A stretch of 64,000 nt of DNA from Candidatus Limnocylindrales bacterium (lineage in GTDB: Bacteria; Chloroflexota; Limnocylindria; Limnocylindrales; CSP1-4): NCBI GenBank assembly GCA_050010635.1, contig JBEKKR010000004.1, positions 70,272-134,271 on the forward strand. The letters run 5' to 3'. Both the position numbers and the translations under genes were made by a program. This document shows, in pieces, positions 4,180-53,067 of this stretch. The notes below the pieces were generated by a model, which saw nothing but the letters and a program-made list of their open reading frames with translations, searched no databases and was not told the origin of the DNA. Position 1 is the stretch's first letter; each line of letters begins with the position of its first letter.

Positions 4180-4222
4180 GCAAACCAAAATCTGGTTCCG
4201 CACAACAAGGAGATTGCGAGTC

Positions 4223-4588: not shown

Positions 4589-4612
4589 CCAGCAACCCAT
4601 TCGGAGAAACCT

Positions 4613-4876: not shown

Positions 4877-4966
4877 CGCGGTCGGCCGGCACGAGCCGGC
4901 GGGACCCCGATCGGCGGGCGGCCCCCTCGCCCCCGCCGGGTTGAGCATCGCAGGAGCACTGGACTG

Positions 4967-23977: not shown

Positions 23978-24374
23978 CAAGGCCCTCTGAGTGCGGTCTC
24001 GCCGTGACTCGGATCCAGGGCCCTTGGTCACTGCCCCACTCCATTTGCAGTATGCCATCAGATCGGCCCATATGGCGGGCGGCCCGCGCCGCCGAGAGTG
24101 CCAATGTCGACGGCGAGCAACGGAATGTGCATGTTCGGGACATCGGGGGCCTCGCGCGCGGCCAGCATCGGGGCCGACCCCTGACTGGCGATCCCGCGGC
24201 GCACCCCTATCGGCCTTGAACCGCATGCCCATCCGGGCGGGTCCGTTCGGCACTTGCCCGATCCGGCTCCCGGCCTGAGGTTAAGGGCAACAAGTCCCGT
24301 GCGCGGGACCGCCGCAGGCCGAGAGGTCTGTGGCTTGTTCTGCGACGGGCTCCGCACCCGAAAGCGAGCAGCGA

Positions 24375-24662
24375 ATGGCGATCAGTCCAGTTGCCATGGC
24401 TCTCCGGCCGCCGGTGCCGTGGACTCCCCTCGTTATCGCCGAGGACCGCTGCAAGGGCTGCGAGCTGTGCGTCGCAGCCTGCCCCAAGCGCGTTCTCGAG
24501 CTGAACCGGAGCCGCATCAACGTGCTCGGCTACCACCCCGTCGAGCTGACCGACGCAGCCGCCTGCACGAGCTGCGCCTTCTGCGCCCGTGTCTGCCCGG
24601 ACACCGTCTTCACCGTCTGGGCCGCCCCGCGCGAGGCCTCGAGAGAGGAGCGGTCGCGATGA
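24375..24662 (+). CDS. 2x[4Fe-4S] ferredoxin, delta subunit of 2-oxoacid:ferredoxin oxidoreductase
   Basis: [12 protein letters not shown] and [12 protein letters not shown]. Stop overlaps the korA start (ATGA). Start uncertain (24330 or 24375). Confidence 0.7.
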
Positions 24663-25899
24663 AATCCGATCGTGAGATAGGCCTCGGCGCACGCCAAACC
24701 GCGGCGGAGCTGGAAGCGAGCCGCCGCTCCCGGGTTCTGATGAAGGGAAACGAGGCGATCGCGGAGGCCGCCGTACAGGCCGGCTGCGATGCCTACTTCG
24801 GCTATCCGATCACGCCGCAGGCCGAGCTCCTCGAGTGGATGGCCCGGCGCATGCTCGAGCTGGGGCGGGTCTTCGTCCAGGCCGAGAGCGAGCTGGGCGC
24901 GATCAACATGGCCCTCGGCGCCGCCGCCACGGGCGCCCGGGTCATGGTTTCGTCGTCGAGCCCGGGCATCAGCCTGATGGCCGAGGCGATGAGTTACATG
25001 GCCGGCTCCGGCACGCCGATGGTGCTCGTCAACATCATGCGGGCCGGCCCCGGCCTGGGCGGCATCGGTCCGTCCCAGAGCGACTACTTCCAGGCCACCA
25101 AGGGCCACGGCCACGGCGACTACCGCGTGCCGGTCCTCGCCCCCGACTCGATCAGCGAGGCTATGGATCTCACGGCAACGGCCTTCGAGCTGGCGGAGCG
25201 CTATCGGACGCCCGTCATGCTCGTCGCCGACGGAATACTCGGCCAGGCGATGGAACCGGTCGAGCTGCGCTTCCGAACGCCAGAAAGGCACACCTTCGAC
25301 TGGGCCCTCACCGGCGCAGCCGGCCGCCCGGCCCGGATCATCAAGTCGATCGACCTCGATCCCGAGGTCCTCGAGGCGCGCAACCAGGCCCTCCAGCACA
25401 AGTACCGCGAGATCGCCCGCCACGAGGTCCGCTGGGAGGGCTGGCAGCTCGAGGATGCCGAGTTCGCCATCGTCGCCTACGGCACGGCGGCCCGCGTCGC
25501 TCGCTCCGCCATTGCCATAGCCCGGGAAAAGGGCATCAAGGTGGGCCTCTTCCGGCCGATCACGCTTTGGCCCTTCCCCGAGCGCGAGCTGGCCCGGCTC
25601 AGCCGGCGCCTCCACGGCATCCTGACCGTCGAGCTCTCGTCCGGCCAGATGGTCGAGGACGTCCGGCTGGCCGTCGAGGGTCGCTGCCCGGTCGCCTTCC
25701 ACGGTCGAATGGGCGGCCTGGTGCCTACCCCGGACGAGGTCCTCGGTGCGCTCAAGGCCCTGCGGGCCCGCACCGAGCGCACGCGATCGGCCGAACACCA
25801 TGCGGCCACGGCGTCGCCGCCATCCCGTCCGCTGGCTACGTACGAATCGTCCGAGATCGCCCCGTGGGTTCACGAACGGGCCCGGCGGGGAGGTCGACG

Positions 25900-25903
<4 letters not shown>
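24659..25903 (+). CDS. korA: 2-oxoacid:ferredoxin oxidoreductase alpha subunit (KorA/PorA/VorA)
   Basis: [34 protein letters not shown] is typical of OFOR alpha. 415 aa. Confidence 0.85.
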
Positions 25904-26733
<830 letters not shown>

Positions 26734-26734
26734 G

Positions 26735-27301
26735 ATGGAGCATTCCGTGGTCTTTGCCGGGTTCGGCGGCCAGGGCCTCCTGTTCGCCGGCCAGGTCCTA
26801 GCCCGGGCCGCCATCAAGGACGGCCTGGAGGCCTTCTGGATCCCCTCCTACGGGCCCGAGATGCGCGGCGGCACGGCCTCGTGCACGGTCATCGTCGGCG
26901 ACGGCCCGATCGGCTCACCGGTGGTGGATCGGTTCGACGCCGCGGTCGTGATGAACCTGCCGTCACTGCGCAAGTTCGCGCCGAAGGTGGCGTCGGGCGG
27001 CGTCATCGCCATGAACACCTCGCTGCTCGGCGAGGAGAGGAGCGGCCGCTCGGACGTGACCGAGATGCACCTTCTCTGCACCGAGCTGGCGGCGAAGGGC
27101 GGCGACGACAAGCTGATCAGCGTCGCCGCCCTGGGCGCGTTGGTGGCCAGGACGGGCTGGGTCACGCCGGACTCGATCCGAGCCGCCCTGCGCGAGATGG
27201 CCGGAAGGAAGCGCCCCGAGGTCGTAGAGGCGGACCTGGGCGTCCTTGCGGCCGGCCTCGAGGCGGGCCGGGCCGGGGCCGCGGAGGCCGTCGCGACCTG
27301 A
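26735..27301 (+). CDS. 2-oxoacid:ferredoxin oxidoreductase gamma subunit
   Basis: FAGFGGQGLLFAGQVLARAA is the hallmark of the OFOR gamma subunit. Confidence 0.85.
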   Translation: MEHSVVFAGFGGQGLLFAGQVLARAAIKDGLEAFWIPSYGPEMRGGTASCTVIVGDGPIGSPVVDRFDAAVVMNLPSLRKFAPKVASGGVIAMNTSLLGEERSGRSDVTEMHLLCTELAAKGGDDKLISVAALGALVARTGWVTPDSIRAALREMAGRKRPEVVEADLGVLAAGLEAGRAGAAEAVAT

Positions 27302-27311
27302 CCGGAGACGG

Positions 27312-27815
27312 CTACGTGCTGGGGCCGGACGCGGCTGCGCTTGGACCCGGCGTGGGCAGCCCAAATCCTCCGCCGCGGCTACGCCCGCCGTCGCCGAAAC
27401 CGCGGACGCCGCTCTGGATGCGCGTGGCATTGACAGAGCCGTCGGCGTTGGGCGTGCCCTGAACCACGATCCGGTCGCCGACCGCGATGTTGTCGATGGT
27501 GGCGGCGGTGACTCCGCGCAGGGAGTAGGTCGTCGCCGGCGAGACATTCACGGTGACCGTCTGGCCGGCAAGGGTCGTCACGACGATCGCCGAGGCGGTC
27601 TTGCTCACCACCGTTCCGATCACGGACCCGGGCCCGCCTGCCCCGACCCTTGGAATGCCACGTCCAGTTGCCGCGGGACTTGCGACCGAACCGGCCGGTA
27701 CCCCGTGGGGACCTCCGGTAGTGGCCCCCCACGAGAAGGCCACCGAAGCCACACCGATGAAGACGAGCGCCACAGCAGGCGCGATGACCGATAACCGCGA
27801 AAACGAGAGGTTCAT
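27312..27815 (-). CDS. secreted hypothetical protein (signal peptide; Gly/Ser/Thr-rich)
   Basis: N-terminal signal MNLSFSRLSVIAPAVALVFIGVASVAFS. Repetitive (T/S)V(T/N)V beta-strand-like segments. Confidence 0.45.
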   Translation of the reverse strand: MNLSFSRLSVIAPAVALVFIGVASVAFSWGATTGGPHGVPAGSVASPAATGRGIPRVGAGGPGSVIGTVVSKTASAIVVTTLAGQTVTVNVSPATTYSLRGVTAATIDNIAVGDRIVVQGTPNADGSVNATRIQSGVRGFGDGGRSRGGGFGLPTPGPSAAASGPST

Positions 27816-27982
27816 GTGTGCCGACTCGCTCTTGAGCTGATTCGTGCCAGGACCCGGATATCCAAGGTTCGAGGGTCCGCACTATCTAAGAGCGCCTTGC
27901 TTAAGTAATCCTGAAACGGCGGTCACGATCCCCTGAGCGACCCGAACTGATACCCCGGGGGCCGCTCTCGGCCTCGCGAATC

Positions 27983-28014
27983 GGAACCGGGGCCCCCTGC
28001 GAGGCCCCGGTTCC
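27983..28014 (-). terminator. GC-rich hairpin (12-bp perfect stem, 8-nt loop) downstream of the PFOR operon
   Basis: GGAACCGGGGCC-ccctgcga-GGCCCCGGTTCC seen directly, about 55 nt 3' of the 28071 stop. No U-tract, as is common in high-GC genomes. Confidence 0.45.
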
Positions 28015-28070
28015 TGGTGACGGTGCGGTGAGCGTGGCGCCGGCCCGAGGGACGGCGCGGGCGTGTCTGG

Positions 28071-29738
28071 CTAGTGGCCCGTCCGCAGGACGCCGGCCAT
28101 CTCCTGCAGGACCTTCCAGTCCTGGAGCCGGTCCTCCTGGGAGCGCTGCAGCTCGACCGAGGGATTGCCCTCCTTGTCGAAGTGCTGGCTGAAACGGCCC
28201 TCGGTCCTGGCGAACGAGATGAAGTCGAACGTCGTGCCGTCCGGGTTCTTCGTCCAGTCTTCCTTGACCGCGGGGTTGCCCTGCAGCGAGAGCCGCTCGG
28301 CGAGCGAGTTGCCTCGACGCGGGTCGTAGGTGAAGAGCGGGAATGCGCGCGAGTCGACCGCAAGCTTGGCCTGGCGGTTGGCCGCGTCGTCGGCGATGCC
28401 GTGCTCCGGCATGCAGGGGGTGTAGGCAACGATCACGGCCGGGCCCGGATAGGCGTTGGCTTCCATGACCGCCTTGTAGAGGTGGTTGATGGTACAGGCC
28501 GCGACCTGGGCGACGTAGACATCGCCGTGGGCCATCAGGATGCGACCCAGTTCCTTGCGCTTCTCCGACTTGCCGTGCTCGGCCTTGCCGTAGGCGGAGA
28601 GCTTGGCAACCTGCGAAGTGAACGACGCGGTCGAGGTCTGGCCGCCGGTGTTCGAGTAGACGCCGGTGTCGAGGACGAGGACCTTGACGTCCATGCCCGA
28701 CGAGACCAGGCGCGACAGCGACTGGAAGCCGATGTCGTACATGGCCCCGTCGCCGCCGAAGACCCACAGCCGCCGATCCTCGTGACCGGCCTGATCCCAG
28801 CGCAGCCGGATGCCCATGGCATCGGCCGGGCCGTTCTCGAAGAGGGAGTTGGTCCACGGAACCGTGAACGGGTTGAACGGGTACGTGCTTCCGAAGACCG
28901 TGTTGCAGCCGGTCTCGGCCACGATGCCCATGCTCTGCGGTCCGTAGGTCTGGAGCGTGGCGGCCACGACCATGCGGACGACGGTGCCTTCGCCGCAGCC
29001 GGAGCAGGAACCGGCTCCGCCGACGAAGCCGAAGGCGTTCTCGCCGAGCATCAGGTCCGCGAGGACCTTCTCGTTGCGATACTCGACAGGGGTTGGCGGG
29101 AGGGACTTGTAGAAGGCGATGTCGCGGCGGTAGCGGTCCAGCGTGCACTCGCCGCTTGCTTCGGCATCGCACTTCTCGATCATGGCCAGGGCGTCATGAC
29201 CCTGGGCCACGCAGACGTCAACGCACTCGGCGCAGCCCTTGCAGTGGTACGGGTCGATGAAGAGGCCGAAGTCCGCGCCCTCGATGCCCTTCTTGGCGGG
29301 CACGTCGGCGTACTTGGTCGTGTGGACGAAGTGCTGCCTGACCGTCTCCGCGGCGAGCTTGGGATCCTTCTGGGCCGCGGCGAACCCGTCGATCGCCATT
29401 GCCAGCGAGGTCTTCGGCTGGGCCGTGGCCATGATGGCGCTGTCCGGGCAGGCGCTGACGCAGGCCATGCAGCCCACGCACTTCTCTGCCGTCAGCTGCG
29501 GAATAAGCGGCGAAAGGGTGCTGAAATCGCGAACGCCTGCGGTCGCGGGGGCGATGAGGCTGCGAGCCACGCCCCTGTCGGCCGGCAGGTCGACGTCGGC
29601 GACGCCGCGGCGGTAGGCATCGATGACATTCCTGTTGAAGTCGTCGACGTAGTCCGCGATGTCGAGAGTCTGGGGTGCGATGAGCCCGGGGCCGGCCCCA
29701 AGCTTCTCGATGTTGGTATCTGCAATCGTGTCGGTCAT
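28071..29738 (-). CDS. pyruvate:ferredoxin oxidoreductase, C-terminal part (ferredoxin domain plus TPP-binding beta domain)
   Basis: CVGCMACVSACP and CKGCAECVDVCV, then GGDGAMYDIGFQSL..DTGVYSNTGGQ (TPP site). This is homologous to domains IV-VI of single-chain PFOR. Confidence 0.85.
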   Translation of the reverse strand: MTDTIADTNIEKLGAGPGLIAPQTLDIADYVDDFNRNVIDAYRRGVADVDLPADRGVARSLIAPATAGVRDFSTLSPLIPQLTAEKCVGCMACVSACPDSAIMATAQPKTSLAMAIDGFAAAQKDPKLAAETVRQHFVHTTKYADVPAKKGIEGADFGLFIDPYHCKGCAECVDVCVAQGHDALAMIEKCDAEASGECTLDRYRRDIAFYKSLPPTPVEYRNEKVLADLMLGENAFGFVGGAGSCSGCGEGTVVRMVVAATLQTYGPQSMGIVAETGCNTVFGSTYPFNPFTVPWTNSLFENGPADAMGIRLRWDQAGHEDRRLWVFGGDGAMYDIGFQSLSRLVSSGMDVKVLVLDTGVYSNTGGQTSTASFTSQVAKLSAYGKAEHGKSEKRKELGRILMAHGDVYVAQVAACTINHLYKAVMEANAYPGPAVIVAYTPCMPEHGIADDAANRQAKLAVDSRAFPLFTYDPRRGNSLAERLSLQGNPAVKEDWTKNPDGTTFDFISFARTEGRFSQHFDKEGNPSVELQRSQEDRLQDWKVLQEMAGVLRTGH

Positions 29739-29757
29739 CGCTCGCTCAGTCTTCGGT

Positions 29758-30153
29758 CTACCTCAACCACAACCGTACGAGGTCGCTGGTCGAGATGATG
29801 CCGATCGGGGTGGCCGCATCGTCGGTGACGACGAGGCGGTGGACTCGGCGCTCTTCCATCAACCTGGCCGCCTCTTCGAGGCGGGCCGTGGCGGAGATGG
29901 TGAGAGCCGGCTTGGTCATCACCTGGCCGACCGCGAGGCCGGGCCAGCTGGTGGCCATGTTCTGGCTTGCTCGAACCCGAACGAGGTCGGTCTGACTCAG
30001 GACGCCCACGAGGAGCCCGTCCGTGTCGACAACGGGAAGACCGGTGATCTTCTTGCTGTCGAGGATCCCGGCGGCCTCCGCGAGGGAGGCCGACTCGACG
30101 ATCGAGATCGGGTTGGGGGTCATGATCTCGCCGACCGTTCGAGATTGGTTCAT
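29758..30153 (-). CDS. CBS-domain pair protein
   Basis: Two CBS motifs (IMTPNPISIV..ITGLPVVDTDGLLVGVLSQTDL and VMTKPALTIS..HRLVVTDD..IGIISTSDL). Stop overlaps the start of the upstream PFOR gene. Confidence 0.75.
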   Translation of the reverse strand: MNQSRTVGEIMTPNPISIVESASLAEAAGILDSKKITGLPVVDTDGLLVGVLSQTDLVRVRASQNMATSWPGLAVGQVMTKPALTISATARLEEAARLMEERRVHRLVVTDDAATPIGIISTSDLVRLWLR

Positions 30154-32486
30154 CGACCGACCTCGGCACGAGCCGGGACGGCGACCTTGCCGGCGATGGC
30201 CTCGGTGACGTCGATGACGCCGTCGTAGGCGCCCTGGATGACGGCGAGGTTGGCGTCGACAACGGCCGAGCCGCGCTTCCCGAAGAATCGGGTCAGGTTG
30301 ACGCGGACGGCTTCCATCAGGGCGGGGCGGTCGAGACCGGCCCGCTCTGCGAACGGCGAGACCTTGAGGAAGACGCCGACGAGGGCCACGCCCTGCATCC
30401 GGATCTCGAGATCCTCCCGGGGCGCGTACTGCTTGGCGAGCGCTGCGGCGTCCAGCGCGAGGAGCCTGATCTTGCGGGCCAGGATCTCCGCGCGCGTGGC
30501 GGGCGGAAGGGCGGCCCAGATCTCGTCCGGATCGGTCAGCGGCGTCGGCACGAAGACCGTGCCGCCGTCGACCAGGCCGGCGAGAGGATCGCCCTGCTTG
30601 AACGAGTTGGTGTCGAAGAGCGGCACGAAGTCGACTTCGGTCAGCTCGTTATGGAGCCGGATCGGCTCCTCGGCGATGGTGAGGAAGTAGGTCGTCGGCA
30701 GGCCCTTCTTCTCCGAGCCGTAGCGCGGATAGGCCTGGACGTACAGGTTGAACAACTCGCCGACGGTCGTGGCCACGAGCTTGTTCGTGGTGACGCTGCC
30801 GAAGCCGCCGACCGAGTGGCCGCGCAGGCTGTATGCGCCCTTGGGCCGGATGCTGAGGCTGCTCTTGTCCAGCGCCAGCGGATGGCGAATGCCGAGGAAG
30901 GCGCGGCGTGTCTTCTTGACGCGGACGTCGTCCGCCATGAGGTCGAAGACGGCCCCGAGGTCGCCCGGCTGGATGTCGCGCGAGCCGAGACCGGCCGAGA
31001 CGGAGATGACGCGCGGCATCGGCGCGCCGTCCATGGCCGCGTCGGCCAGGGCCGACTTGAGCTCACGCGTCAGCGGGTTGTCCGCTGCAGCGGGTTCGTC
31101 CGTCCGCTCGACGACAGCCACGACCTTTGCCTTGGCAAGCGCCTTGGCGAGACGAGTGGCCGGGAACGGCCGGAAGCTCGTGACGGTCACGCAACCGACC
31201 TTGCGGCCCTGGTTGCGCAATTCGTCTACGACCGCCAGGGCCGTATCCGCCATGGTCCCCATCGAGACCATGATGTAGTCCGCGCCTTCCGTGCGGTACT
31301 CGCTGATCAGACCGTAGTGGCGGCCGGTAAAGGCCTCCCACTCGGCCATGGCCCGTTCCGTGATGTCCGTGAGCTGGTCGTACCAGGCACGCTGCCCGAT
31401 CCGACCTTTCATGTAGGAGTCCTGATTCTGAACGACGCCGATCATCAGCGCGTCCTTGGGGTCGAACATGTCACGGACGGTGACGCGCGGGTCCCCAACG
31501 AACCGCTTGAGGAGTTCATCCTCGGGAAGATTGACGTTCTCGATTGTGTGCGTGGTCAGGAACCCGTCCTGAGCGACGAACCACGGGGTCTCGGCGTCCT
31601 CGGCCACTCGTCGGGCAATCGCGGTGAGATCTGCCGCTTCCTGGCAGTTCCGGGCGAAGAAGATGCCCCAACCTGCATCGGCGACGCCCATGACGTCGTC
31701 GTGGCCGGCGTGGATGTTGAGGCTCTGGCTGGTCAGGGCGCGGGCCCCGATGTGGAATACAGCGGGAAGACGCTTGCCGGAGATGACGTACAGGACTTCC
31801 TTCATGAGGATGAGTCCTTGTCCGGCGGTGAAGTTCGTGACCCGTCCGCCCGCCAGGGCGAAGCCTTCGGCGGCTGAGGCGGAGGAATGCTCCGACTCCG
31901 GCTCGATGAACTTCAGGTGCGTTCCCCATAGGTTCGGGGTGCCGTTGGCGACGGCAACCTGGTAGACCGCCGCCATGGTCGTGGACGGAGTGATCGGGTA
32001 GGCGCAGGCGCCGTCGCTGATCCGCGTCTCGACGTAGGCGATGGCCTCCGAGCCGTCGATGATGGCAGGAATGCCTGGAAATTCGGGAGTCGGCGAATTC
32101 GTCACGATGGTCGGTTCACTCAATGCACGCAGCTGGCGGGCCAGCGCGCTTCCGTCCAGGTGCTTGAGCAGGGTGCCGCCTATCCCGCTGGCGACCGCCT
32201 CGCGCTGCTCGTCTGCATGCCAGTAGGAAGCCAGCACGGCGATCCGACCCGCGGGGATCAGATCGCGCAGGGCGGCAACCATTGGCCTCCACCCCCCGGC
32301 CACATCCGCATCGAGCAGCACCACGTCCGGCCGGGCACCGGCGGCCTCGCGAGCCGCGGATTCACACGACGCCTGAGCGACGATGAAGCCATGGCGCGAG
32401 AGGTGATCGCAGAGAGCCTCGGTTGCGGCGCGGTGCTGGCTGACGATGAGAACTCGGCGGAGGGGTATCTGGGAGTCAGCGAGCAT
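30150..32486 (-). CDS. fusion of a degenerate response-regulator receiver (REC) domain with the pyruvate:ferredoxin oxidoreductase N-terminal (alpha and gamma-like) domains
   Basis: Residues 1-120 form a REC-like domain (RVLIVSQH.., DVVLLDADVAGG, VLAS, LLKHL) lacking the acidic DD pair. Then YPITPSTTMAAVYQ...GQGLILMKEVLY, which is PFOR domain I-III. Confidence 0.85.
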   Translation of the reverse strand: MLADSQIPLRRVLIVSQHRAATEALCDHLSRHGFIVAQASCESAAREAAGARPDVVLLDADVAGGWRPMVAALRDLIPAGRIAVLASYWHADEQREAVASGIGGTLLKHLDGSALARQLRALSEPTIVTNSPTPEFPGIPAIIDGSEAIAYVETRISDGACAYPITPSTTMAAVYQVAVANGTPNLWGTHLKFIEPESEHSSASAAEGFALAGGRVTNFTAGQGLILMKEVLYVISGKRLPAVFHIGARALTSQSLNIHAGHDDVMGVADAGWGIFFARNCQEAADLTAIARRVAEDAETPWFVAQDGFLTTHTIENVNLPEDELLKRFVGDPRVTVRDMFDPKDALMIGVVQNQDSYMKGRIGQRAWYDQLTDITERAMAEWEAFTGRHYGLISEYRTEGADYIMVSMGTMADTALAVVDELRNQGRKVGCVTVTSFRPFPATRLAKALAKAKVVAVVERTDEPAAADNPLTRELKSALADAAMDGAPMPRVISVSAGLGSRDIQPGDLGAVFDLMADDVRVKKTRRAFLGIRHPLALDKSSLSIRPKGAYSLRGHSVGGFGSVTTNKLVATTVGELFNLYVQAYPRYGSEKKGLPTTYFLTIAEEPIRLHNELTEVDFVPLFDTNSFKQGDPLAGLVDGGTVFVPTPLTDPDEIWAALPPATRAEILARKIRLLALDAAALAKQYAPREDLEIRMQGVALVGVFLKVSPFAERAGLDRPALMEAVRVNLTRFFGKRGSAVVDANLAVIQGAYDGVIDVTEAIAGKVAVPARAEVGR

Positions 32487-32767
32487 GCGTATAGGGTGCG
32501 CGCCGAAACCTCTCGCTACGAGCGACAGGGCTCCCTAACACCGGGGGCCATATGGCCCGCGGAGGCACGGGACGGGATAGGTGGCACCTGCCCACAAGAG
32601 TGGGCTCATGGCGGCTTGGAGGGTGGGTCGCGCGGGCGGATTGACCTGTGCGCCGGAGGGCATGCGGCCCCCTCGGCGTCCTCATCCGGGCGGGGGAACA
32701 CTTGCCCGCGGCTGAGGGCCATTCGGCACTGCCGCGGCAGCTGCACCGGCCCGAGACTTCCGCTTGT

Positions 32768-32808
32768 GACGAACGCCGGAGGGGACGCCCGGCGTTCGTC
32801 CTTTTTAC
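32768..32808 (+). terminator. canonical intrinsic terminator (12-bp stem, 9-nt loop, CTTTTTA tail) oriented for plus-strand transcription
   Basis: GACGAACGCCGG-aggggacgc-CCGGCGTTCGTC followed by CTTTTTAC. No plus-strand gene precedes it, so this is an orphan. Confidence 0.6.
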
Positions 32809-32887
32809 GCCCCTAACAAACGCAACGGGCGACTGGCCGCCCAGCCCAAGCGTGCCGGCTCCCTGCTCCACCGCCGTAGGGCGGCCC

Positions 32888-34159
32888 CTACAGTTCGTGG
32901 TACTTGCGGGCGTAGGAAGCCAGCTCGTCGCGGAAGTCCGGGTGGGCAATTGCGATGAGACGCTTGGCTCGCTCGCGGAGCCCCTGGCCGAACAGCTCGG
33001 CCACCCCGTACTCGGTCACGACCGTGCGCACGCTCGAACGAGTCGTGGTGACCCCCGCGCCGTCATACAGCTCCCACGTGATACGCGAGACCTTCCCGTC
33101 GGCCGTGGTGGATGGCAGGGCGATGATCGCCCGCCCCTCCGGCGCCAGGGACGCGCCGCGCACGAAGTCCATCTGCCCGCCGACGCCGCTGTACATGCGG
33201 TGGCCGAGGGAGTCGGCGCAGACCTGGCCGGTCAGGTCAACCTCGATCGCGGAATTCACCGCGGTCATGCGCCGCTGCCTGCGAATCGTGGCAGTGTCGT
33301 TGGTGTAGTCCACGCCGCGCAGCTCGAGCATCGGGTTGCCGTCGACCCACCTGTAGAGGCGCGGCGTCCCCATCATGAACGCGGCCACGACCTTGTGCGG
33401 GTCGACGGTCTTGGCGCTGCAGTCCACGACCCCCTTCTCAACCAGTTCGACGAGGGGGTCCGTGAACATCTCGGTGTGGACCCCGAGATGCTTCTTGCCC
33501 TCGAGGCACATGCCGACGGCCGTCGGGATGGCCCCGATGCCCATCTGGAGCGTGGCCTCGTCCGGGATCAGGTCCGCGACGTACTCGCCGATCCGGCGCT
33601 CCACCTCGCCGATCTCGCCCGGGGTGTAGACGTATGGCGCCTGGTCGACCTCGACCGCCAGGTCGATCTGGCTGACGTGGACGTAGCTGTCGCCGTGAGT
33701 GCGCGGCATTGCCTTGTTGAGCTGGGCGATGACCGTCTTCGCACAACGGATCGCGGTCTGCATCGATTCGACGGACGTTCCCAGCGAGCAGAAGCCGTGG
33801 TCGTCGGGCGGCGTCATGTTGGCGAAGACGGCATCGAGCGGCAGCAAGCCGCTCTCCATCAGCAAAGGGACGTCCGACAGCTGGACCGGGATGAACTCCG
33901 CCCGTCCGTCGTTGATGGCCGCCCGGGCGTTCGGTCCGATGAAGAGCGCCCGGTGGAAGAGGTGGCCCTGCATTTCGGGGGCAAGGTGCGGGTGCGGCCC
34001 CTCGCAGTGCAAGTGAACGACTTTGACGTCCTCCAGCTCCGGGGCCTTACGGCACAGGGCGTCGAGGAGCACGGACGGCGTGGCAGCCGCGCACTGGACG
34101 TAGATTTGGTGGCCTGACTTGATCCCCGAGACTGCCTCATCGGCGCTGACGATACGCAT
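32888..34159 (-). CDS. acetyl-CoA hydrolase/transferase family protein (4-hydroxybutyrate CoA-transferase/Cat1-like)
   Basis: 423 aa, full-length match to the family pattern (LQMGIGAIP.., DLTGQVCADS, GVGGQMDF). Confidence 0.85.
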   Translation of the reverse strand: MRIVSADEAVSGIKSGHQIYVQCAAATPSVLLDALCRKAPELEDVKVVHLHCEGPHPHLAPEMQGHLFHRALFIGPNARAAINDGRAEFIPVQLSDVPLLMESGLLPLDAVFANMTPPDDHGFCSLGTSVESMQTAIRCAKTVIAQLNKAMPRTHGDSYVHVSQIDLAVEVDQAPYVYTPGEIGEVERRIGEYVADLIPDEATLQMGIGAIPTAVGMCLEGKKHLGVHTEMFTDPLVELVEKGVVDCSAKTVDPHKVVAAFMMGTPRLYRWVDGNPMLELRGVDYTNDTATIRRQRRMTAVNSAIEVDLTGQVCADSLGHRMYSGVGGQMDFVRGASLAPEGRAIIALPSTTADGKVSRITWELYDGAGVTTTRSSVRTVVTEYGVAELFGQGLRERAKRLIAIAHPDFRDELASYARKYHEL

Positions 34160-34260
34160 GCGCCGAATCTATGCACTCCGCATGGAGGCGCGAGGGCCGA
34201 ACGGCAGCATTTCGGGCGGTGCGGGCGACAACGAAGGTGTCGACCGCCCGCGACGCAGCC

Positions 34261-35532
34261 CTAGAGGCCGTAGACCTTCCTGGCGTACGACGTCAGCTCG
34301 TCGCGGAAGTCGGGATGTGAGATTGCGATCAGACGTCTGGCCCGCTCTCGCAGGCTCTGCCCGAACAGCTCGGCGATGCCGTACTCCGTCACGATCGTGC
34401 AGGGGTGGGATCGGGTCGTGGTCACGCCCGCACCCTCCTTGAGGGCCACGGTGATCCGCGAGACCTTGCCGTCTGCCGCGGTCGAGGGCAGGGCGATGAT
34501 CGCTCGACCCTCCTCGGCGAGAGCCGCGCCGCGAACGAAGTCCAGCTGGCCACCGACGCCGCTGTACATCTTGTGCCCGATCGAATCGGCGCAGACCTGG
34601 CCGGTGAGGTCGACCTCGATGGCGGAGTTGATGGCGGTCATGCGCCGGTGCCGGCGGATCACCGAAGTGTCGTTCGTGTAGTCGACCTGGCGCATCTCGA
34701 CCATCGGGTTGTTGTCCACGAACCTGTACAGTCGCCTGGTGCCCATCATGAAGGTGACGACGATCTTGCCGCAGTCCAGATCCTTCTTCTGGCAGGTCAC
34801 CACGCCTCGCTCGACCAGATCGACGAGTACGTCCGTGAACATCTCGGTATGGATCCCGAGATCCTTCTTGTCGACGAGGTAGAGGCACACCGCGCTCGGG
34901 ATCGCGCCGATACCCATCTGCAGCGTCGCCTCGTTGGGGACGAGCTCCGCCACCGCCTCACCGATGCGACGTTCGATGTCGCTGATGACCGGGTCGGCGT
35001 GCTCGTAAGGCAGCTGATCGACCTCGACGCCGAGATCGATCATGCTGACGTGGACGAAGCTGTCGCCCAGCGTCCGGGGCATCGATCGGTTCAGCTGGGC
35101 GATGATCGTCTTGCCGCAGCGTACGGCGGCCAGACAGGTGTCGACGGACGTACCGAGCGAGCAGAAGCCATGCTCGTCGGGTGGGGTGACGTTGAGGAGC
35201 ACCGCGTCCAGTGGCAGAACGCCTTTGTCGAACAGCGACGGGATGTCCGACAGGAAGACCGGGATGAACTCCGCCCGGCCGTCGTTGATCGCCTTTCGCG
35301 CGTTGGGGCCGATGAACAATGCGCGGTGACAGAAGTGGCCGGCCATCTCGGGGGCCAGATGCGGACCGGGCCCCTCGGCGTGCATGTGGACGATCTTCAC
35401 GTCCTCGAGTTCGGGCGCTCGCGCGACCAGGGCATCGAGGAGGAAGGAGGGCGTGGCAGCCGCCCCCTGCATGAAGACCTGCTGACCAGACTTGATTCCG
35501 GATACGGCTTCTTCGGCGGTCACGATACGCAT
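34261..35532 (-). CDS. acetyl-CoA hydrolase/transferase family protein (tandem paralog of 32888-34159)
   Basis: About 75% identical to the neighbouring gene over its full length. Internal ATG (MRIVTAEEAV) chosen. Confidence 0.85.
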   Translation of the reverse strand: MRIVTAEEAVSGIKSGQQVFMQGAAATPSFLLDALVARAPELEDVKIVHMHAEGPGPHLAPEMAGHFCHRALFIGPNARKAINDGRAEFIPVFLSDIPSLFDKGVLPLDAVLLNVTPPDEHGFCSLGTSVDTCLAAVRCGKTIIAQLNRSMPRTLGDSFVHVSMIDLGVEVDQLPYEHADPVISDIERRIGEAVAELVPNEATLQMGIGAIPSAVCLYLVDKKDLGIHTEMFTDVLVDLVERGVVTCQKKDLDCGKIVVTFMMGTRRLYRFVDNNPMVEMRQVDYTNDTSVIRRHRRMTAINSAIEVDLTGQVCADSIGHKMYSGVGGQLDFVRGAALAEEGRAIIALPSTAADGKVSRITVALKEGAGVTTTRSHPCTIVTEYGIAELFGQSLRERARRLIAISHPDFRDELTSYARKVYGL

Positions 35533-35627
35533 GATTAGGAGTTTACGTACCGCCGCTGTACCGGCGAGGGTCAATTGCGAGGTATCGGAGGGCCGTCCGG
35601 CCTGCCCCGGACAAGTCGCCGAGGGGA

Positions 35628-36299
35628 CTACGCGCCGCCTTTGAGGCGGTGGCGGGCGACGAACGCGGCGGCCTGGGCGCGGCGTTCGAGGTTCAGCTTC
35701 GAAAGGATGGAGCTGACGTAGTTCTTGACCGTCTTGTCGGACAGGAAGACCTCGGAGGCGATCTCCTTGTTGGTCTTGCCCTCGGCGACGAGCAGCAGGA
35801 TCTTCTGCTCTTGCTGGGTCAGCTGGGCCAGCTCGTCCGTGTAGGTGCCGGTCGCGATGCGGCGGACTCGGTCCAGGACCTTCTCCGTGACGGCCGGGTC
35901 CAGCAGCGACTCGCCGCGGCCGACGGACTCGAGGGCGCTGACGAGGTCGCGGCCGCGAATCTGCTTCAGCAGGTAGCCGGATGCGCCGGCGATGATCGCC
36001 GAGAGGACCGCTTCCTCATCGGGGTAGCTGGTCAGGATGACAACGCGGGTGCTCGGGAACTCGGCCCGAATCTCGCGACAGGCCTCGATGCCCGAGCCGT
36101 CCGGCAGCCGAACGTCCATGACCACGAGGTCGGGCTCGAACTTGCGAGCCATCTCGACGGCTTCGGCCGCAGTGCCCGCTTCGGCTACGACCTGGAAGTG
36201 TTCGCGTCGCTCCAGCAGCGAGACGAGGCCCTGACGAACGACCTCGTGGTCGTCGACCACGAGCAGCCTCAGGGGGCGTGCATCGATCTGGTCGGTCAT
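35628..36299 (-). CDS. NarL/LuxR-family response regulator (DosR/DevR-like)
   Basis: REC domain (LLVVDDHEVVRQG, DLVVMDVRLPDGSG, K) plus C-terminal LuxR HTH (LTQQEQKILLLVAEGKTNKEIA). ATGA-coupled to the kinase. Confidence 0.85.
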   Translation of the reverse strand: MTDQIDARPLRLLVVDDHEVVRQGLVSLLERREHFQVVAEAGTAAEAVEMARKFEPDLVVMDVRLPDGSGIEACREIRAEFPSTRVVILTSYPDEEAVLSAIIAGASGYLLKQIRGRDLVSALESVGRGESLLDPAVTEKVLDRVRRIATGTYTDELAQLTQQEQKILLLVAEGKTNKEIASEVFLSDKTVKNYVSSILSKLNLERRAQAAAFVARHRLKGGA

Positions 36300-37858
36300 T
36301 CCTCTCCTTGATCCGTAACCCCGCCCAGTATGTCGCGGCGGGGCGCCTCGACGATGATACGCGTGCCGGCGCCGGGACCGCTCTGGACGTCAAGCCAGCC
36401 GCCGACAGACGAGGCGCGGGCGCGCATGTTGACCAGGCCCTGGTGGCCCACGCCCCGGGGCCTGGCCGGGTCGAAGCCGACGCCGTTGTCGCCGATTATC
36501 AGCCTGACGACCTCGTCGCCCGTCTCGACGCGAACGCTGCCGCGAGTGGCCCTTGAGTGGCGGGCGATGTTGCTGAGAGCCTCGCGGGCAATCGAGAGCA
36601 GCTGTCCGATGAGCTCGGGCGGAAGGTCCGCATCGCGCGCCTCGTCCGTATCGAGGTCGATGTCCACCATGCTGTTGACGCGGAACTCGTCGGCCAGGGC
36701 GGCCAGGCCGCCGATCAGGCCCGCCTGCTCGAGCAACTCGGGCCGGAGACCGAAGATGAAGTTGCGGATGTCTCGGATCGATTGATCGAGCGAATCCACA
36801 GCGCGCTCGACGCGCGCTCGCGCCTCGTCCGGCTCGTCGGCCATCAGGTCCGGCACGTCTTCCAGCGACAGGCCCACCGCGTAGATGCTCTGGATGATGC
36901 CGTCGTGGAGGTCGCGACCGATCCGCTCGCGTTCCTCGACGATGGCGAGGCGCTGGACCTGCTCGTGCAGGCGGGCGTTCTCGATGGCGATGCCGGCGTG
37001 GAGGGCGAACATCTCGACCAGGCGCTCGTCGTCCTCGGTGAAGTCGCCGAAGGGCTGCTTGTTGGTCAGATACAACCGGCCGATCGACCGGCCCTTCGCC
37101 CCGATCGGCACACCGAGCAGCGAACGCATCTCCGGGTGGTTCGGTGGGAAGCCGTAGCGGCGCGGGTCGGTGGCGATGTCGTGGACCCGGACGGGATGCG
37201 TCTGGCGCGCGATGACACCGAGCAGCCCGTGGCCGTGCGGCGGCGGGCCGATCCGCTCGCGCTCCGCACGGGTTATGCCGCTCGTGATGAACCGTTCGAT
37301 GCCGCCCTCCTGGTCCACGATCCCGAGGGCGGCGTACTCGGCATGGGCAAGCTCGCGGACGCGGTCCGTGATCAGCTGCAGGACGCGGTCGAGATCGAGG
37401 ACGCCGGCGATTCCGCGCGTGGCGGTGTCCAGGGCGGCCAGCTCGTCCGAGGCCTGGCCGGCGCGGGCCCTCGACCAGGCCGAGCCGATGACGATCTCCA
37501 GGCCGCGGGCGCATTCGTCCACGGAGAAGACCGCCGCGGGCGGCGCGTCCAGCTGGAGCGTGGCCAGGACGCGATCGCCGAAGGAAAGCTGGTAGGTTCG
37601 CAGGCCCGCCGTCTCCGCATCCTGGTCGAGCAGGCTCCCGGCGCGCAGCTCCACCTCGGTCAGAGGCGGGGCGTCCAGGTGCAGGTGCCCGCCGCCCAGG
37701 CCCGAGCTGTCGATCACGCGGCTGAAGGCCGACGAGAGCTGCACATGACCTTCGGGAGCGGGATGGTTCTGCCAGCTCTCGAGAGCGACCGATAACTCGC
37801 GCAGGCCGAGCAGGCCGGTCGAATCCCGGCTCGAAGGCGTCACCTGCGAGGAGCTCAT
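36296..37858 (-). CDS. tandem-GAF sensor histidine kinase (HisKA_3/HATPase_c; DosS/DevS-like)
   Basis: Two GAF domains, an H-box ERERIGRDLHDGIIQS, and ATPase motifs (DNGVGF, GHQGLVNMRARA..GG). Confidence 0.85.
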   Translation of the reverse strand: MSSSQVTPSSRDSTGLLGLRELSVALESWQNHPAPEGHVQLSSAFSRVIDSSGLGGGHLHLDAPPLTEVELRAGSLLDQDAETAGLRTYQLSFGDRVLATLQLDAPPAAVFSVDECARGLEIVIGSAWSRARAGQASDELAALDTATRGIAGVLDLDRVLQLITDRVRELAHAEYAALGIVDQEGGIERFITSGITRAERERIGPPPHGHGLLGVIARQTHPVRVHDIATDPRRYGFPPNHPEMRSLLGVPIGAKGRSIGRLYLTNKQPFGDFTEDDERLVEMFALHAGIAIENARLHEQVQRLAIVEERERIGRDLHDGIIQSIYAVGLSLEDVPDLMADEPDEARARVERAVDSLDQSIRDIRNFIFGLRPELLEQAGLIGGLAALADEFRVNSMVDIDLDTDEARDADLPPELIGQLLSIAREALSNIARHSRATRGSVRVETGDEVVRLIIGDNGVGFDPARPRGVGHQGLVNMRARASSVGGWLDVQSGPGAGTRIIVEAPRRDILGGVTDQGEE

Positions 37859-37980
37859 GACCGGAGACTAGCAGGACGTTCGGCGGCGCGTCACTGCCCC
37901 GGCCGGGTGTTGCGCCGAGGTTGAGCCGTTTGCGAGGATGGATACGGTCGATCGGGGCTCTCGGGCGCCGGATGGCACCG

Positions 37981-38023
37981 GGGACCTTGGACCCACCGGA
38001 ACGGGCCGGAGGTCCCTTGGCCC
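37981..38023. promoter_or_regulatory. two DevR/DosR-box-like elements (GGGACCTTGGACCC and GGTCCCTTGGCCC) in the divergent dosS/usp intergenic region
   Basis: Seen in sequence, 80-120 bp upstream of the USP start. Similarity to the mycobacterial Dev box half-site GGGAC(T/C) is partial. Confidence 0.3.
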
Positions 38024-38100
38024 TTCATCGGGCCGCGCCCAACCTTGCCGAGCACGAAGGCCGGCACCACTTCAGCGCACCGGCCGAACGGACGGGGGTC

Positions 38101-38550
38101 ATGTCCCACCTCGAAACCATCCTGCTCGCCACCGACGGCTCGCCCGCGTCGGAAAGCGCCAGCGAGGAAGCGATCGACCTGGCTGTCCAAGTCCAGGCGC
38201 GGCTGCTCGTCGTCAGCGTCCTCGGCACCTCGGCGCGCCCGTCGGAGGCATCGGCCGGAGCCGGGAGCCTGGCCGACTCGCGCGACTCGCTGACGACCAA
38301 GGCCCAGTCGATCGTGCAGCGGGCCAAGGCTTCGGGCGCCGACGCGACCTTCCTGGTCTGGGAAGGCGAGCCGGGCGAAGCCATCGTCGCCGCCGCCGAG
38401 TCGGAGAACGCCGACATGATCGTGGTCGGCTCGCACGGCCGCAGCGGCGTCAGCCGCTTCCTGATCGGCAGCGTCTCGGACTACGTAGTCCGCCACGCCC
38501 ATTGCCCGGTGATGGTGGTCCGCGGCAGGCCGGACTCCACGCGGCGGTAG
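38101..38550 (+). CDS. universal stress protein (UspA family)
   Basis: ILLATDGSPASESA..MIVVGSHGRSGVSRFLIGSVSDYVVRHAHCPVMVV, ATP-binding type USP. Divergent from the DosS/DosR-like pair. Confidence 0.8.
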   Translation: MSHLETILLATDGSPASESASEEAIDLAVQVQARLLVVSVLGTSARPSEASAGAGSLADSRDSLTTKAQSIVQRAKASGADATFLVWEGEPGEAIVAAAESENADMIVVGSHGRSGVSRFLIGSVSDYVVRHAHCPVMVVRGRPDSTRR

Positions 38551-38562
38551 AGCCCCGCTCCC

Positions 38563-39372
38563 CTACTTCGTGTAGACGCCCTCGGGATCCAGCTCCTCGC
38601 GGATGAGGCGCAATTCCTCGGCCGTGGGCACGGGCGTGACCGCCAGCGGCTCCGCAACCTTAGGCTCCCAACCGATCGTCTCGCGGACCTGCTCGAGCGT
38701 GGCGCCGGGGTGGATCGAATCGAGGCGCATCTCGCCCGAATCGTCGAAGTGGTAGATGCCCAGATCCGTCACCACGACCGATGGGCCGCGCCCGAGCCAG
38801 CCCTCCTCGCGGCGGATCCTGGCCGCGGCTTCCGCTCCGCCAAGGTTGCCGGGCGAGGTCCGGAAGTCGATCCGATCGACGAACGAGCGCTTCGACTGGC
38901 GCATTATCACGAAGACCTGGCGGGCGTTGATGGCGATCTCGCACGCCCCGCCGGAGCCCGGCAGCCGCGTCTTCGGATGCTCGTAGTCGCCGATGACGGT
39001 GCTGTTGATGTTGCCGAACCGGTCTATCTGGGCCGCGCCGAGGAAGCCGACGTCCACGAGCCCGCCCTGCAGGTAGAAGCTGAACAGCTCGAACATCGAG
39101 ACGGCCGCGGTGGCGCCGGTGACGATCGTGGGGTCGCCGATGGAGAGCGGTAGGCGGGCGGGCTTTGCGCCGAAAGCGCCCGACTCGTAGACGAGCTCCA
39201 GCGCCGGGGCCACGGTCAAGCGGGCCAGGTTCACGGCGATGTTCGGCAGCCCGACGCCGACGAAGCAGACGCGCTGGCCGGCCAGCTCGCGGGCCGCCGC
39301 CACGATCATCATCTCGGACTTGCTGAAGGCGGGGGCTCCCGCCGCGCCGGGCTGCACCGCAGGCTCGCTCAT
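38563..39372 (-). CDS. CoA-transferase subunit B (glutaconate/3-oxoacid CoA-transferase family)
   Basis: MSEPAV..SESGEMRLDS-type family I CoA-transferase B subunit. Internal ATG. ATGA overlap with subunit A. Confidence 0.8.
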   Translation of the reverse strand: MSEPAVQPGAAGAPAFSKSEMMIVAAARELAGQRVCFVGVGLPNIAVNLARLTVAPALELVYESGAFGAKPARLPLSIGDPTIVTGATAAVSMFELFSFYLQGGLVDVGFLGAAQIDRFGNINSTVIGDYEHPKTRLPGSGGACEIAINARQVFVIMRQSKRSFVDRIDFRTSPGNLGGAEAAARIRREEGWLGRGPSVVVTDLGIYHFDDSGEMRLDSIHPGATLEQVRETIGWEPKVAEPLAVTPVPTAEELRLIREELDPEGVYTK

Positions 39373-52818: not shown

Positions 52819-52966
52819 GCCCGCGATTATGCGGCTCGCGCGCCTCGACCGGCGTCCTACTTACGGCCGGACCGCGTGTCATCCCAAAGGCCGATTGCCG
52901 GCCCGGCCCACCGAAAGATGGCCCGGTCGGGCCCACTGGCCCAGCCTGAGTTCGTGTTGCCATACT

Positions 52967-52988
52967 AAGTTCAGTATTGACTGAACTT
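52967..52988. promoter_or_regulatory. perfect 9-4-9 inverted repeat AAGTTCAGT-ATTG-ACTGAACTT, candidate operator for the GbsR/MarR-like regulator
   Basis: Seen directly in an AT-richer divergent intergenic region, about 80 bp upstream of the regulator GTG. Confidence 0.45.
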
Positions 52989-53067
52989 GCCGAAAGTTCT
53001 AGCCTCCCCAAATCCACTCGACCGGCACCGCCGGCCGCGGCATGGGAGGTCTCCCAGAGGAGGCTAC

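Follow-up and report, generated by a model that had tools for sequence, protein, structure and literature searches.

Glycolysis opens into ferredoxin-dependent anaerobic metabolism through pyruvate:ferredoxin oxidoreductase (PFOR), and to our knowledge the regulation of this enzyme is usually described at the level of transcription only. Receiver domains are joined to enzymes in response regulators with enzymatic outputs, such as the methylesterase CheB, the GGDEF proteins PleD and WspR, the HD-GYP protein RpfG and PP2C-type proteins. Phosphotransfer to a receiver needs Mg2+ held by the carboxylates of two acidic residues (D12 and D13 in CheY). Here we describe a PFOR gene that carries a degenerate receiver domain (REC) at the start of the N-terminal half of a split enzyme. 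It lies in a stretch of 64,000 nt (the window) from a Candidatus Limnocylindrales bacterium (GenBank assembly GCA_050010635.1, contig JBEKKR010000004.1, positions 70,272 to 134,271 of the forward strand), a member of the Limnocylindria, which are abundant and uncultured in soils, fens and peat.

Several described systems resemble parts of this locus. Osp, a CckA inhibitor of Rhodobacter sphaeroides, keeps the beta3 Asp of a receiver, lacks the acidic pair, works unphosphorylated and binds the transmitter domain of CckA; its promoter carries a CtrA site (PMC9430884). In Myxococcus xanthus, the single-domain response regulator EpsW is phosphorylated and activates EpsZ by direct binding (PMC12802240). 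The Dev (DosR) box of Mycobacterium tuberculosis has the critical positions G3, G4, G5 and C7 in each half and A or T (W) at position 9 (PMC3177182), and the Dev regulon includes Rv2623 and the CBS protein Rv2626c (PMC3177182, Table 1).

The REC-PFOR architecture is real, conserved and, apparently, previously undescribed. Literature searches for REC-PFOR fusions, CBS-PFOR operons and Limnocylindria PFOR returned nothing relevant, and the databases annotate the fused proteins only as PFOR or 2-oxoacid:acceptor oxidoreductase.

The N-terminus of the PFOR half is a receiver

We re-read the open reading frames (ORFs) of the locus and found three genes on the minus strand between 28071 and 32486, as a preliminary description of this DNA had placed them. 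The first (30150-32486) encodes a protein of 778 aa. Its residues 1-125 (32112-32486) form REC and are followed by a Pro/Thr-rich linker, EPTIVTNSPTPEFPGI (residues 126-141; 32064-32111), which was delimited by alignments and low pLDDT. The remainder, residues 142-778 with the stop codon (30150-32063), comprises PFOR domains I, II and III, equivalent to the alpha and gamma subunits, as assigned by Pfam and TIGR02176.

The Response_reg profile (Pfam PF00072) matched residues 12-118 of this protein over positions 1-109 of its 111, with a score of 22.3 bits (E 1.5e-4) that is below the gathering cut-off of 30.2 bits. This was the check by profile that the preliminary description had proposed. A profile of 16 homologous N-termini retrieved receiver domains only from the PDB sequences; the best natural match was M. 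tuberculosis DevR/DosR (E 2e-5, residues 12-123). BLASTP aligned REC over 118 aa with the NarL-type regulator encoded 3 kb upstream (30% identity, E 2e-10).

An AlphaFold2 (AF2) model of REC from a diverse alignment had a pLDDT of 86.5 and a pTM of 0.81. It replaced an earlier model from a shallow alignment of 16 sequences, which was poor (pLDDT 67.5, with residues 87-110 below 50). The new model is a complete (beta-alpha)5 fold with beta1 to alpha5 in canonical order: beta1 10-15, alpha1 19-31, beta2 34-39, alpha2 44-51, beta3 55-59, alpha3 66-73, beta4 82-86, alpha4 91-100, beta5 104-107 and alpha5 112-123. Foldseek found 564 matches to it in the PDB at E<=1e-3, and the top 50 were all receivers (TM 0.74-0.82, rmsd ~2 A). 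We conclude that the N-terminal 125 aa are a genuine NarL/DosR-type receiver fold. The receiver that had been proposed at the start of this PFOR half is therefore upheld by the PDB profile, BLASTP, AF2 and Foldseek.

REC is translated and under purifying selection

A full N-terminal extension was present in 79 of the best 120 homolog clusters. The next tier of homologs (72-76% identity, 650-685 aa) begins directly at '...PRYPGIPAIVDGSE' and has no extension. Pairwise Nei-Gojobori comparison of 19 fused genes gave a ratio of nonsynonymous to synonymous substitution rates (dN/dS) of 0.148 for REC residues 9-124 and of 0.145 for the catalytic core. Residues 81-124 (beta4 to alpha5) were 86-100% identical to the window protein, compared with 75-92% in the core.

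These data bear on the objection that the fusion is an annotation artefact, the true start lying downstream and the 'receiver' being an untranslated leader that is open by chance in high-GC DNA. The Pfam match under the gathering threshold, the ATG without a Shine-Dalgarno sequence and the internal Met starts that gene callers chose for some homologs would all agree with an artefact. However, purifying selection on REC equals that on the enzyme core, which means that the start codon is not mis-called. Moreover, the ATG and the promoter block before it are invariant in the promoter alignment of the fused loci, the receiver model is confident by AF2 and Foldseek, and the N-terminus of REC-less relatives is short and unrelated. 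Stand-alone homologs of REC (described below) are real genes: 10 of 12 matched Response_reg at E<=0.01, and that of the related locus L022 reaches the Pfam cut-off with 31.0 bits. A start downstream of REC, which the preliminary description had named as evidence that would overturn its reading, is ruled out by dN/dS, the invariant ATG and promoter block and the stand-alone homologs, and we regard the artefact as virtually impossible.

The fused receiver has lost most of its active site

We compared the active-site residues of 19 fused and 52 stand-alone receivers, using the canonical neighbouring regulator (VVDDH / VVMDV / ILTSY / LLKQ) as reference. The position of CheY D12 is Ser in all 19 fused proteins (S16 in the window protein) and never acidic in the stand-alone receivers. 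At the D13 position, the fused proteins have Gln (17, including Q17 of the window protein) or Thr (2), whereas 45 of the 52 stand-alone receivers have Asp or Glu. The D57 position is Asp throughout (D59 here; 19/19 and 52/52). The T87 position is Ala in every fused protein (A86) and Ala (44), Ser (7) or Gly (1) in the stand-alone ones; the T+1 position is Ser in 18/19 fused proteins (S87) and mostly Ala in the stand-alone receivers. Lys at the K109 position is found in 19/19 (K108) and 49/52, respectively. In the alignments, Ala86 stands opposite T82 of DevR and opposite the Thr of the neighbouring regulator's 'ILTSY', and the Ser takes the T+1 place, as in the NarL-type 'TSY'. The fused REC keeps two of five conserved receiver positions, the Asp and the Lys.

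The preliminary description had read the domain as a pseudo-receiver, and the incomplete set of catalytic residues agrees with this. It was also right that the phospho-acceptor-like Asp (D59) and the Lys (K108) are kept, both of which are invariant, and that the N-terminal acidic pair is missing (S16-Q17). Its retained Ser/Thr was an error: both alignments and the census put Ala at the T87-equivalent position in 19/19 fused proteins. Control by phosphorylation, which it had suggested, is unlikely in the fused form, from which both Mg2+-binding acidic residues and the Thr are gone, in contrast to the D13 acid of most stand-alone receivers. We infer that the fused REC is no longer able to work as a phospho-switch.

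REC derives from a family of stand-alone receivers

An exhaustive profile search of 1.84 billion representatives returned small proteins of 127-254 aa as top matches (E 1e-41 to 1e-24). These stand-alone receivers share the motifs GGW, AYW and GIGATLLK. Their family is small, with 44 clusters at 90% identity. In the genome locus L022 and the metagenome loci L085-L087, a separate receiver gene lies directly upstream of an unfused PFOR N-half. Its stop codon is in another frame than PFOR and is followed by an intergenic region of ~180 nt.

In a neighbour-joining tree of 77 PFOR cores, all fused proteins formed one clade, and its sister was L022 plus L085, in which REC is separate and adjacent. 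A single fused clade with such a sister points to a single fusion of two neighbouring genes. The comparison with L022 and L085 indicates that the fusion occurred once, via one deletion of ~220 bp. Lost in the fusion were the C-terminus of the stand-alone REC, the spacer with the PFOR gene's own promoter block and the first few PFOR codons, and a Pro/Thr linker of 16 residues was left at the fusion point. Among the fetched loci, 23 were classified as fused, the window included, and none of them showed a reversion to separate genes. Judged by the residue census, the fused clade lost the last Mg2+-binding acidic residue (D13 to Q) after fusion and kept D57 and K109.

By these relationships, REC is a pre-existing stand-alone gene of a DosS/DosR-like cluster and was not invented for PFOR, and the fusion may owe as much to gene neighbourhood as to any control of the enzyme. 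We rejected an origin as a recent duplicate of the receiver of the neighbouring DosR-like regulator, with which REC shares only 30% identity; REC has a small family of its own, with 44 clusters. Other enzyme fusions of the receiver family were not found among the top 150 representatives, whose long proteins are ordinary hybrid kinases, NtrC-type and GGDEF/EAL regulators; REC fusions to 2-oxoacid:ferredoxin oxidoreductase (OFOR) beyond the family were not searched for exhaustively.

Two further receiver sequences were noted. P0121 (135 aa), from the search of representatives, is chimera-like: its N-half is a canonical NarL-type receiver with an intact 'VCDDH' acidic pair, and its C-half, from 'PDVVLLDADVPGGW' on, hardly differs from the fused receiver. 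Either true recombination or a mis-joined assembly could have produced it. In the locus L018, from one metagenome-assembled genome (MAG), the fused receiver occurs a second time as a partial copy on the opposite strand (18030-18248), which covers residues 53-125 at 90% identity. This copy and rearranged pieces of PFOR-C are found ~6 kb downstream of the intact gene.

The receiver belongs to a DosS/DosR-like cluster

Upstream of REC-PFOR the minus strand carries two acetyl-CoA hydrolase/transferase genes, copy 1 directly upstream (32888-34159; Pfam and synteny) and copy 2 (34261-35574; Pfam). These are preceded by genes for a DosR/DevR-like response regulator of the NarL family with a canonical receiver (35628-36299) and a DosS/DevS-like GAF-HisKA_3 histidine kinase (36296-37858), both assigned by Pfam and by their mycobacterial matches. 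A universal stress protein (USP) gene (37921-38550, plus strand; Pfam Usp) diverges from the kinase gene and has its likely true start near 38101. The kinase, regulator, transferase(s), receiver order with a divergent USP gene recurs in the other receiver loci that have upstream flank. The preliminary description had mentioned a DosS-like kinase nearby. This assignment is borne out by residues 155-301 of the kinase, which matched the GAF domains of DevS and DosT (E 1e-30), and by the adjacent regulator, which matched full-length DevR (3c3w) at E 7e-59. The regulator is 94-99% identical across the fused clade.

Wherever the sequence extends far enough upstream, the gene directly before the receiver, be it fused or free, encodes an acetyl-CoA hydrolase/transferase. 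The genes downstream of free receivers vary. A split PFOR follows in L022, L085-L087 and L098. In L091-L093 and L097, a convergent RDD gene and then a four-subunit OFOR follow; this is the nearest oxidoreductase, and no split PFOR is adjacent. L089, L090 and L099 have unrelated or unrecognised genes. Such a receiver is missing within 10 kb of the split PFOR in some 55 related loci, many of which keep the kinase-regulator-transferase cluster upstream. On this gene order, the receiver belongs first of all to the DosS/DosR-like cluster; PFOR lies beside it in some loci only and has captured it a single time.

PFOR and acetyl-CoA transferase together suggest a hypoxia/redox-type fermentation module that would lead from pyruvate through acetyl-CoA to acetate; an acetate kinase gene follows the cassette in L002 and L003. 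Tandem paralogues of the acetyl-CoA hydrolase/transferase are also present in L014, L017 and L024, and most relatives have one copy. In L098, a long ENA contig, the kinase and the regulator occur only as fragments (a 63-aa HATPase_c and a 55-aa GerE, 4200-6200), which adjoin an intact stand-alone receiver and a CBS-less split PFOR. The fragments point either to a frameshift-rich assembly or to a decaying two-component system.

A Dev-box-like palindrome precedes fused and free receiver genes

The promoter region of REC-PFOR contains a perfect palindrome, GGGCCATATGGCCC (32545-32558), which resembles the Dev (DosR) box. It is centred ~66 nt upstream of the ATG, with its 5' end at -72, and was the only exact match near the locus in a motif scan. 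In each half it agrees with the critical Dev-box positions G3, G4, G5 and C7 and with W9, and this consensus is the mycobacterial one. The palindrome occupies -72 (+/-2) in all 22 fused loci other than those of the divergent L001/L021 branch. Before free receiver genes, GGGCCGAATGGCCC occurs at -71/-72 or -51, and many REC-less PFOR genes have GGGCCGAACGGCCC-type sites at similar distances. We suggest that the palindrome is a putative operator through which the DosR-like regulator probably drives transcription of the whole REC-PFOR unit.

The promoter alignment revealed two further elements on the minus strand. A degenerate second box, GGGAGCCCTGTCGC (32522-32535), lies 9 nt downstream of the palindrome within a promoter block that is at least 90% conserved over 23 fused loci; it may be a secondary Dev box. 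A GCGCAC.CTAT block (32491-32501), also conserved in the 23 fused loci, ends 4 nt before the ATG, and a Shine-Dalgarno sequence is absent before this invariant start codon. The same architecture precedes the unfused PFOR genes of L022, L085 and L087. The block is possibly a -10 element, and the REC-PFOR mRNA would then be leaderless.

Sites with one mismatch to the palindrome were present shortly before the second transferase gene (35590) and in the divergent region between the kinase and USP genes (38003), where the Dev-box-like site is GGGCCGGAGGTCCC (38003-38016). The sole other exact GGGCC-N4-GGCCC palindrome in the window (52929-52942) lies between genes for a MarR-family regulator (52987-53577, plus strand) and an ABC-transporter ATPase (51898-52818, minus strand) and is probably an unrelated operator.

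The split PFOR and its CBS gene are older than the fusion

Pfam assigned POR_N (residues 158-380, 5e-55), PFOR_II (402-509, 1.5e-21) and POR/gamma (560-755, 1.7e-27) to the 778-aa protein, which aligns to positions 3-612 of TIGR02176, the model of single-chain PFOR. The C-terminal half is a separate gene, as the preliminary description had it. It lies at 28071-29738 (minus strand) and encodes a 555-aa protein with domains IV-VI, equivalent to the delta and beta subunits, that has two 4Fe-4S motifs (Fer4) and TPP_enzyme_C by Pfam, matches PorB and aligns to the C-terminal part of TIGR02176. The translations contain the motifs CVGCMACVSACP and CKGCAECVDVCV (CxxCxxCxxxC), the CSGC proximal-cluster cysteines and the thiamine pyrophosphate (TPP) motif GGDGAMYDIG...NTGGQ, which indicate that the enzyme is intact. 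The TIGR02176 scores of the two halves are 369 and 217 bits, against a cut-off of 911 bits. All NCBIfam equivalog scores were far below their cut-offs, with PFOR and PorA/PorB models as the best, and pyruvate specificity is therefore not established. Pyruvate is a plausible substrate; the acetyl-CoA transferases beside PFOR and the acetate kinase of L002 and L003 fit a pyruvate-to-acetyl-CoA reaction only circumstantially.

Between the two halves lies a gene for a stand-alone CBS-pair protein of 131 aa (29758-30153, minus strand; two Pfam CBS domains, 108.7 bits). Its start overlaps the stop codon of the PFOR N-half (ATGA), with GAGG 7 nt upstream, and the 4-nt overlap was found in 64 of 68 loci. 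Translational coupling of the CBS pair between the halves had been claimed, and the overlap and the GAGG support it. The CBS gene beside the enzyme had also been counted as unusual. The comparison showed that neither it nor the split is special to this protein, since both were present throughout the REC-less Limnocylindria relatives. In each of the 80 genome loci, with or without the CBS gene, the break in PFOR falls between domains III and IV. The CBS gene is absent in L011, L014, L045, L063, L069, L070 and L075, where the PFOR halves are still separate genes, adjacent or overlapping. Insertion of the CBS gene as the cause of the split was thus rejected, since these seven lineages keep two PFOR genes.

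From its distribution we conclude that the CBS gene has long accompanied the split PFOR as an accessory, and that it predates the REC fusion and is independent of it. The CBS pair is probably a stoichiometric accessory. In L060 (12001-14118), one Limnocylindria MAG, it is fused in frame to PFOR-C in a 705-aa ORF. This fusion, which may be an assembly error, hints by Rosetta-stone logic at physical contact between the CBS protein and PFOR-C. The best PDB relatives of the CBS protein are chloroplast CBSX2 and CBSX1 (6e-20), and M. tuberculosis Rv2626c matched at 2.6e-5. Both G-h-h-S-x-x-D motifs can be read in its translation (GVLSQTD and GIISTSD), and binding of an adenosyl ligand and sensing of energy charge are plausible.

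Other features of the locus

The nearest homologs of the proteins are labelled Candidatus Limnocylindrales/Limnocylindria or Chloroflexota. A four-subunit OFOR (delta, alpha, beta, gamma; 24330-27301, plus strand) is convergent with the split PFOR and syntenic in many relatives. Between the two lies a gene for a small DUF5666 protein with a hydrophobic N-terminus (27312-27815, minus strand). Long antisense ORFs (28074-29798 and 30651-31877, plus strand; 27901-29172, minus strand) had no Pfam match and were dismissed as typical high-GC artefacts. An Rfam E-value scan of the 400-nt leader and of 27800-38700 for riboswitches and known RNAs gave one sub-threshold chance match only.

A hairpin with a perfect 12-bp stem, GACGAACGCCGG-N9-CCGGCGTTCGTC (32768-32800), is located ~90 nt beyond the 3' end of the first acetyl-CoA transferase gene. 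AAAAA comes before it on the coding strand, and the plus strand reads hairpin and then TTTTT. It looks like a terminator for the antisense direction. The hairpin is kept in many related loci, where it is visible as 'KKDERRASPPAFV' or 'KRTNAGRPLRRSS' in upstream translations.

Discussion

Our preferred reading of the fused REC, which we hold tentatively, is a phosphorylation-independent interaction module that docks on the DosS-like kinase. On its flexible Pro/Thr linker, REC would act without phosphorylation through the conserved surfaces alpha1 and alpha4-beta5-alpha5; the alpha1 and beta4-alpha4-beta5-alpha5 surfaces of the fused REC are very strongly conserved. Its target would be the kinase's transmitter domain, just as Osp, also a pseudo-receiver, binds that of CckA. 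Kinase output would be fed back in proportion to the PFOR made, and PFOR would be held beside the sensor. The DosR-like regulator would probably act on the palindrome at -72 to drive transcription of the unit. The CBS pair is a separate and older accessory, which may bind an adenosyl ligand.

Several observations weigh against docking on the kinase. Every sampled member of the clade retains the fusion, and the alpha4-beta5-alpha5 output face is hyper-conserved; both would suit a binding partner inside PFOR just as well. In alpha1, the residues of REC are unlike those of the cognate DosR-like regulator in the BLASTP alignment, so shared kinase docking is not indicated by the sequence. The invariant D57 and K109 equivalents are compatible with some form of phosphorylation or with binding of a phosphate-like ligand. 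Since many clusters of DosS/DosR, acetyl-CoA hydrolase/transferase and PFOR genes have no receiver, the receiver is dispensable for the basic circuit. Finally, enrichment of the palindrome across the window was not significant (24 sites, 15.5 expected; 3/100 shuffles reach 24), and the case for the palindrome rests on its positional conservation across loci.

The strongest competitor, rather unlikely in our estimate, is a regulator that acts on the enzyme in cis: the stand-alone REC would bind PFOR or another OFOR when phosphorylated by the DosS-like kinase, and the fusion would have made this contact permanent and D13 dispensable, so that the domain now tunes dimerisation, activity or oxygen protection. 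Such a role follows the Rosetta-stone logic of a fusion kept under purifying selection across a clade, and it has a precedent in phosphorylated EpsW, which activates EpsZ by direct binding (PMC12802240). It would also agree with the receiver gene directly upstream of PFOR in the sister clade and L098 and near the four-subunit OFOR in L091-L093 and L097, with a loss of the D13 acid that is specific to the fused clade (acidic in 0/19, compared with 45/52 stand-alone receivers) and with an alpha4-beta5-alpha5 output face that is more conserved than the enzyme. However, the constant neighbours of the family are the acetyl-CoA transferase and the kinase/regulator pair and not PFOR, L089, L090 and L099 have no adjacent oxidoreductase, and the ~55 related split PFORs work without a receiver. 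The 16-aa Pro/Thr linker, moreover, suggests a loose tether and not a packed domain.

Two further explanations are less likely. In a true phospho-switch, the DosS-like kinase or acetyl phosphate would phosphorylate D59 and thereby toggle PFOR post-translationally. The D57 and K109 equivalents are invariant in fused and kept in nearly all stand-alone members, a HisKA_3 kinase of the cognate type is encoded 4 kb away in every fused locus with enough flank, and REC belongs to the same NarL/DosR family as the regulator of this kinase. We nevertheless consider such a switch quite improbable: D12 and D13 are replaced by Ser and by Gln or Thr in 19/19 fused proteins and the Thr by Ala, the Mg2+-dependent chemistry of phosphotransfer depends on the lost carboxylates, and Osp, with an equal deficit, is not phosphorylated (PMC9430884). 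An incidental fusion would require no coupling at all. A deletion would have joined neighbours, and REC would continue a job unrelated to PFOR, as an auxiliary receiver or phosphate sink, or would do little. In many genomes the stand-alone receivers work with no PFOR beside them, the fusion event was single and the linker looks flexible. A functionless passenger, however, is excluded by the dN/dS of 0.148 and the near-invariant residues 81-124, a phosphate sink is hard to square with the loss of D13, and in none of the 23 fused loci have the two genes separated again. We rate the incidental fusion as least probable of these, and very doubtful.

Taken together, these points weaken the account of control by phosphorylation, and REC may have become associated with PFOR partly because the two genes were neighbours. 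A bolder proposal, which we judge unlikely, is that a DosS-like heme/redox kinase controls carbon flux directly, by docking or phosphotransfer on the receiver of PFOR within seconds after a change in oxygen or redox state. A stoichiometric CBS subunit would add an adenylate (energy-charge) input, and the stand-alone receivers would be the diffusible version of the same enzyme-targeting signal. If this were true, inputs from a sensor kinase, from nucleotides and from transcription (Dev box) would meet in one metabolic enzyme. The conserved covalent bond of PFOR with a receiver would offer a way into the question of direct action by sensor kinases on enzymes of core metabolism. The locus and its relatives also provide an unusually clean natural series of receiver degeneration towards modules independent of phosphorylation, from a canonical regulator through a stand-alone atypical receiver that keeps D13 to a fused receiver without D13. 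The near-universal coupling of a CBS pair to the split PFOR suggests an unstudied accessory subunit of this enzyme family.

Comparison with known systems

Fusion of a receiver to an enzyme and the pseudo-receiver are known kinds; the partner, half of a TPP/Fe-S enzyme of central metabolism, is unprecedented. REC-PFOR has the N-terminal receiver, linker and catalytic domain in one polypeptide that are seen in CheB, PleD, WspR, RpfG and the PP2C-type proteins. Those proteins have canonical phospho-acceptors and signalling-enzyme outputs, whereas here a degenerate REC is joined to half of a central-metabolism oxidoreductase.

Among pseudo-receivers, REC is comparable with Osp. Both have a receiver fold that keeps the beta3 Asp and lacks the two acidic residues after beta1. 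The Osp promoter has a site for the regulator of its own system, and a putative Dev-box-like palindrome stands before the fused and the stand-alone REC genes. Like the stand-alone relatives described here, Osp is a small receiver that is auxiliary to a two-component system. Unlike REC, Osp lacks the Lys and is free-standing, whereas REC is joined covalently to a metabolic enzyme. Binding to a kinase has been demonstrated for Osp and is inferred for REC, and the systems differ (CckA-ChpT-CtrA in one case, DosS/DosR-like in the other). The pair EpsW-EpsZ is a second parallel, in which a receiver-only protein acts on an enzyme and not on DNA; it suggests how the stand-alone ancestor might act on PFOR. 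EpsW differs in being canonical, phosphorylated and unfused, and its target is a phosphoglycosyl transferase and not a TPP/Fe-S oxidoreductase.

The DosS/DosT-DosR system of M. tuberculosis likewise has a GAF kinase, a NarL-type regulator and a palindromic operator with GGG.C half-site features. The regulon-like neighbourhood described here includes a USP and a stand-alone CBS pair, comparable with Rv2623 and Rv2626c, and ferredoxin-linked metabolism. The present system belongs to another phylum and has the half-site GGGCC where the mycobacterial one is GGGAC. We know of no auxiliary single-domain receiver and no PFOR in the mycobacterial DosR system.

The CBS protein resembles CBSX1/CBSX2 and Hrp1 (Rv2626c) as a stand-alone CBS pair of ~130-160 aa, and its own sequence has both G-h-h-S-x-x-D ribose-phosphate motifs. 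Here, in contrast, the gene lies between the enzyme halves and is translationally coupled to them, and in L060 it is fused to one half. The enzyme itself has the domain order I-II-III / IV-V-VI, the TPP motif, the two ferredoxin-type clusters and the proximal-cluster cysteines of single-chain PFOR (NifJ/YdbK/Desulfovibrio africanus, TIGR02176) and PorABCD, but it consists of two polypeptides that are split between domains III and IV, with the CBS-pair gene at the split.

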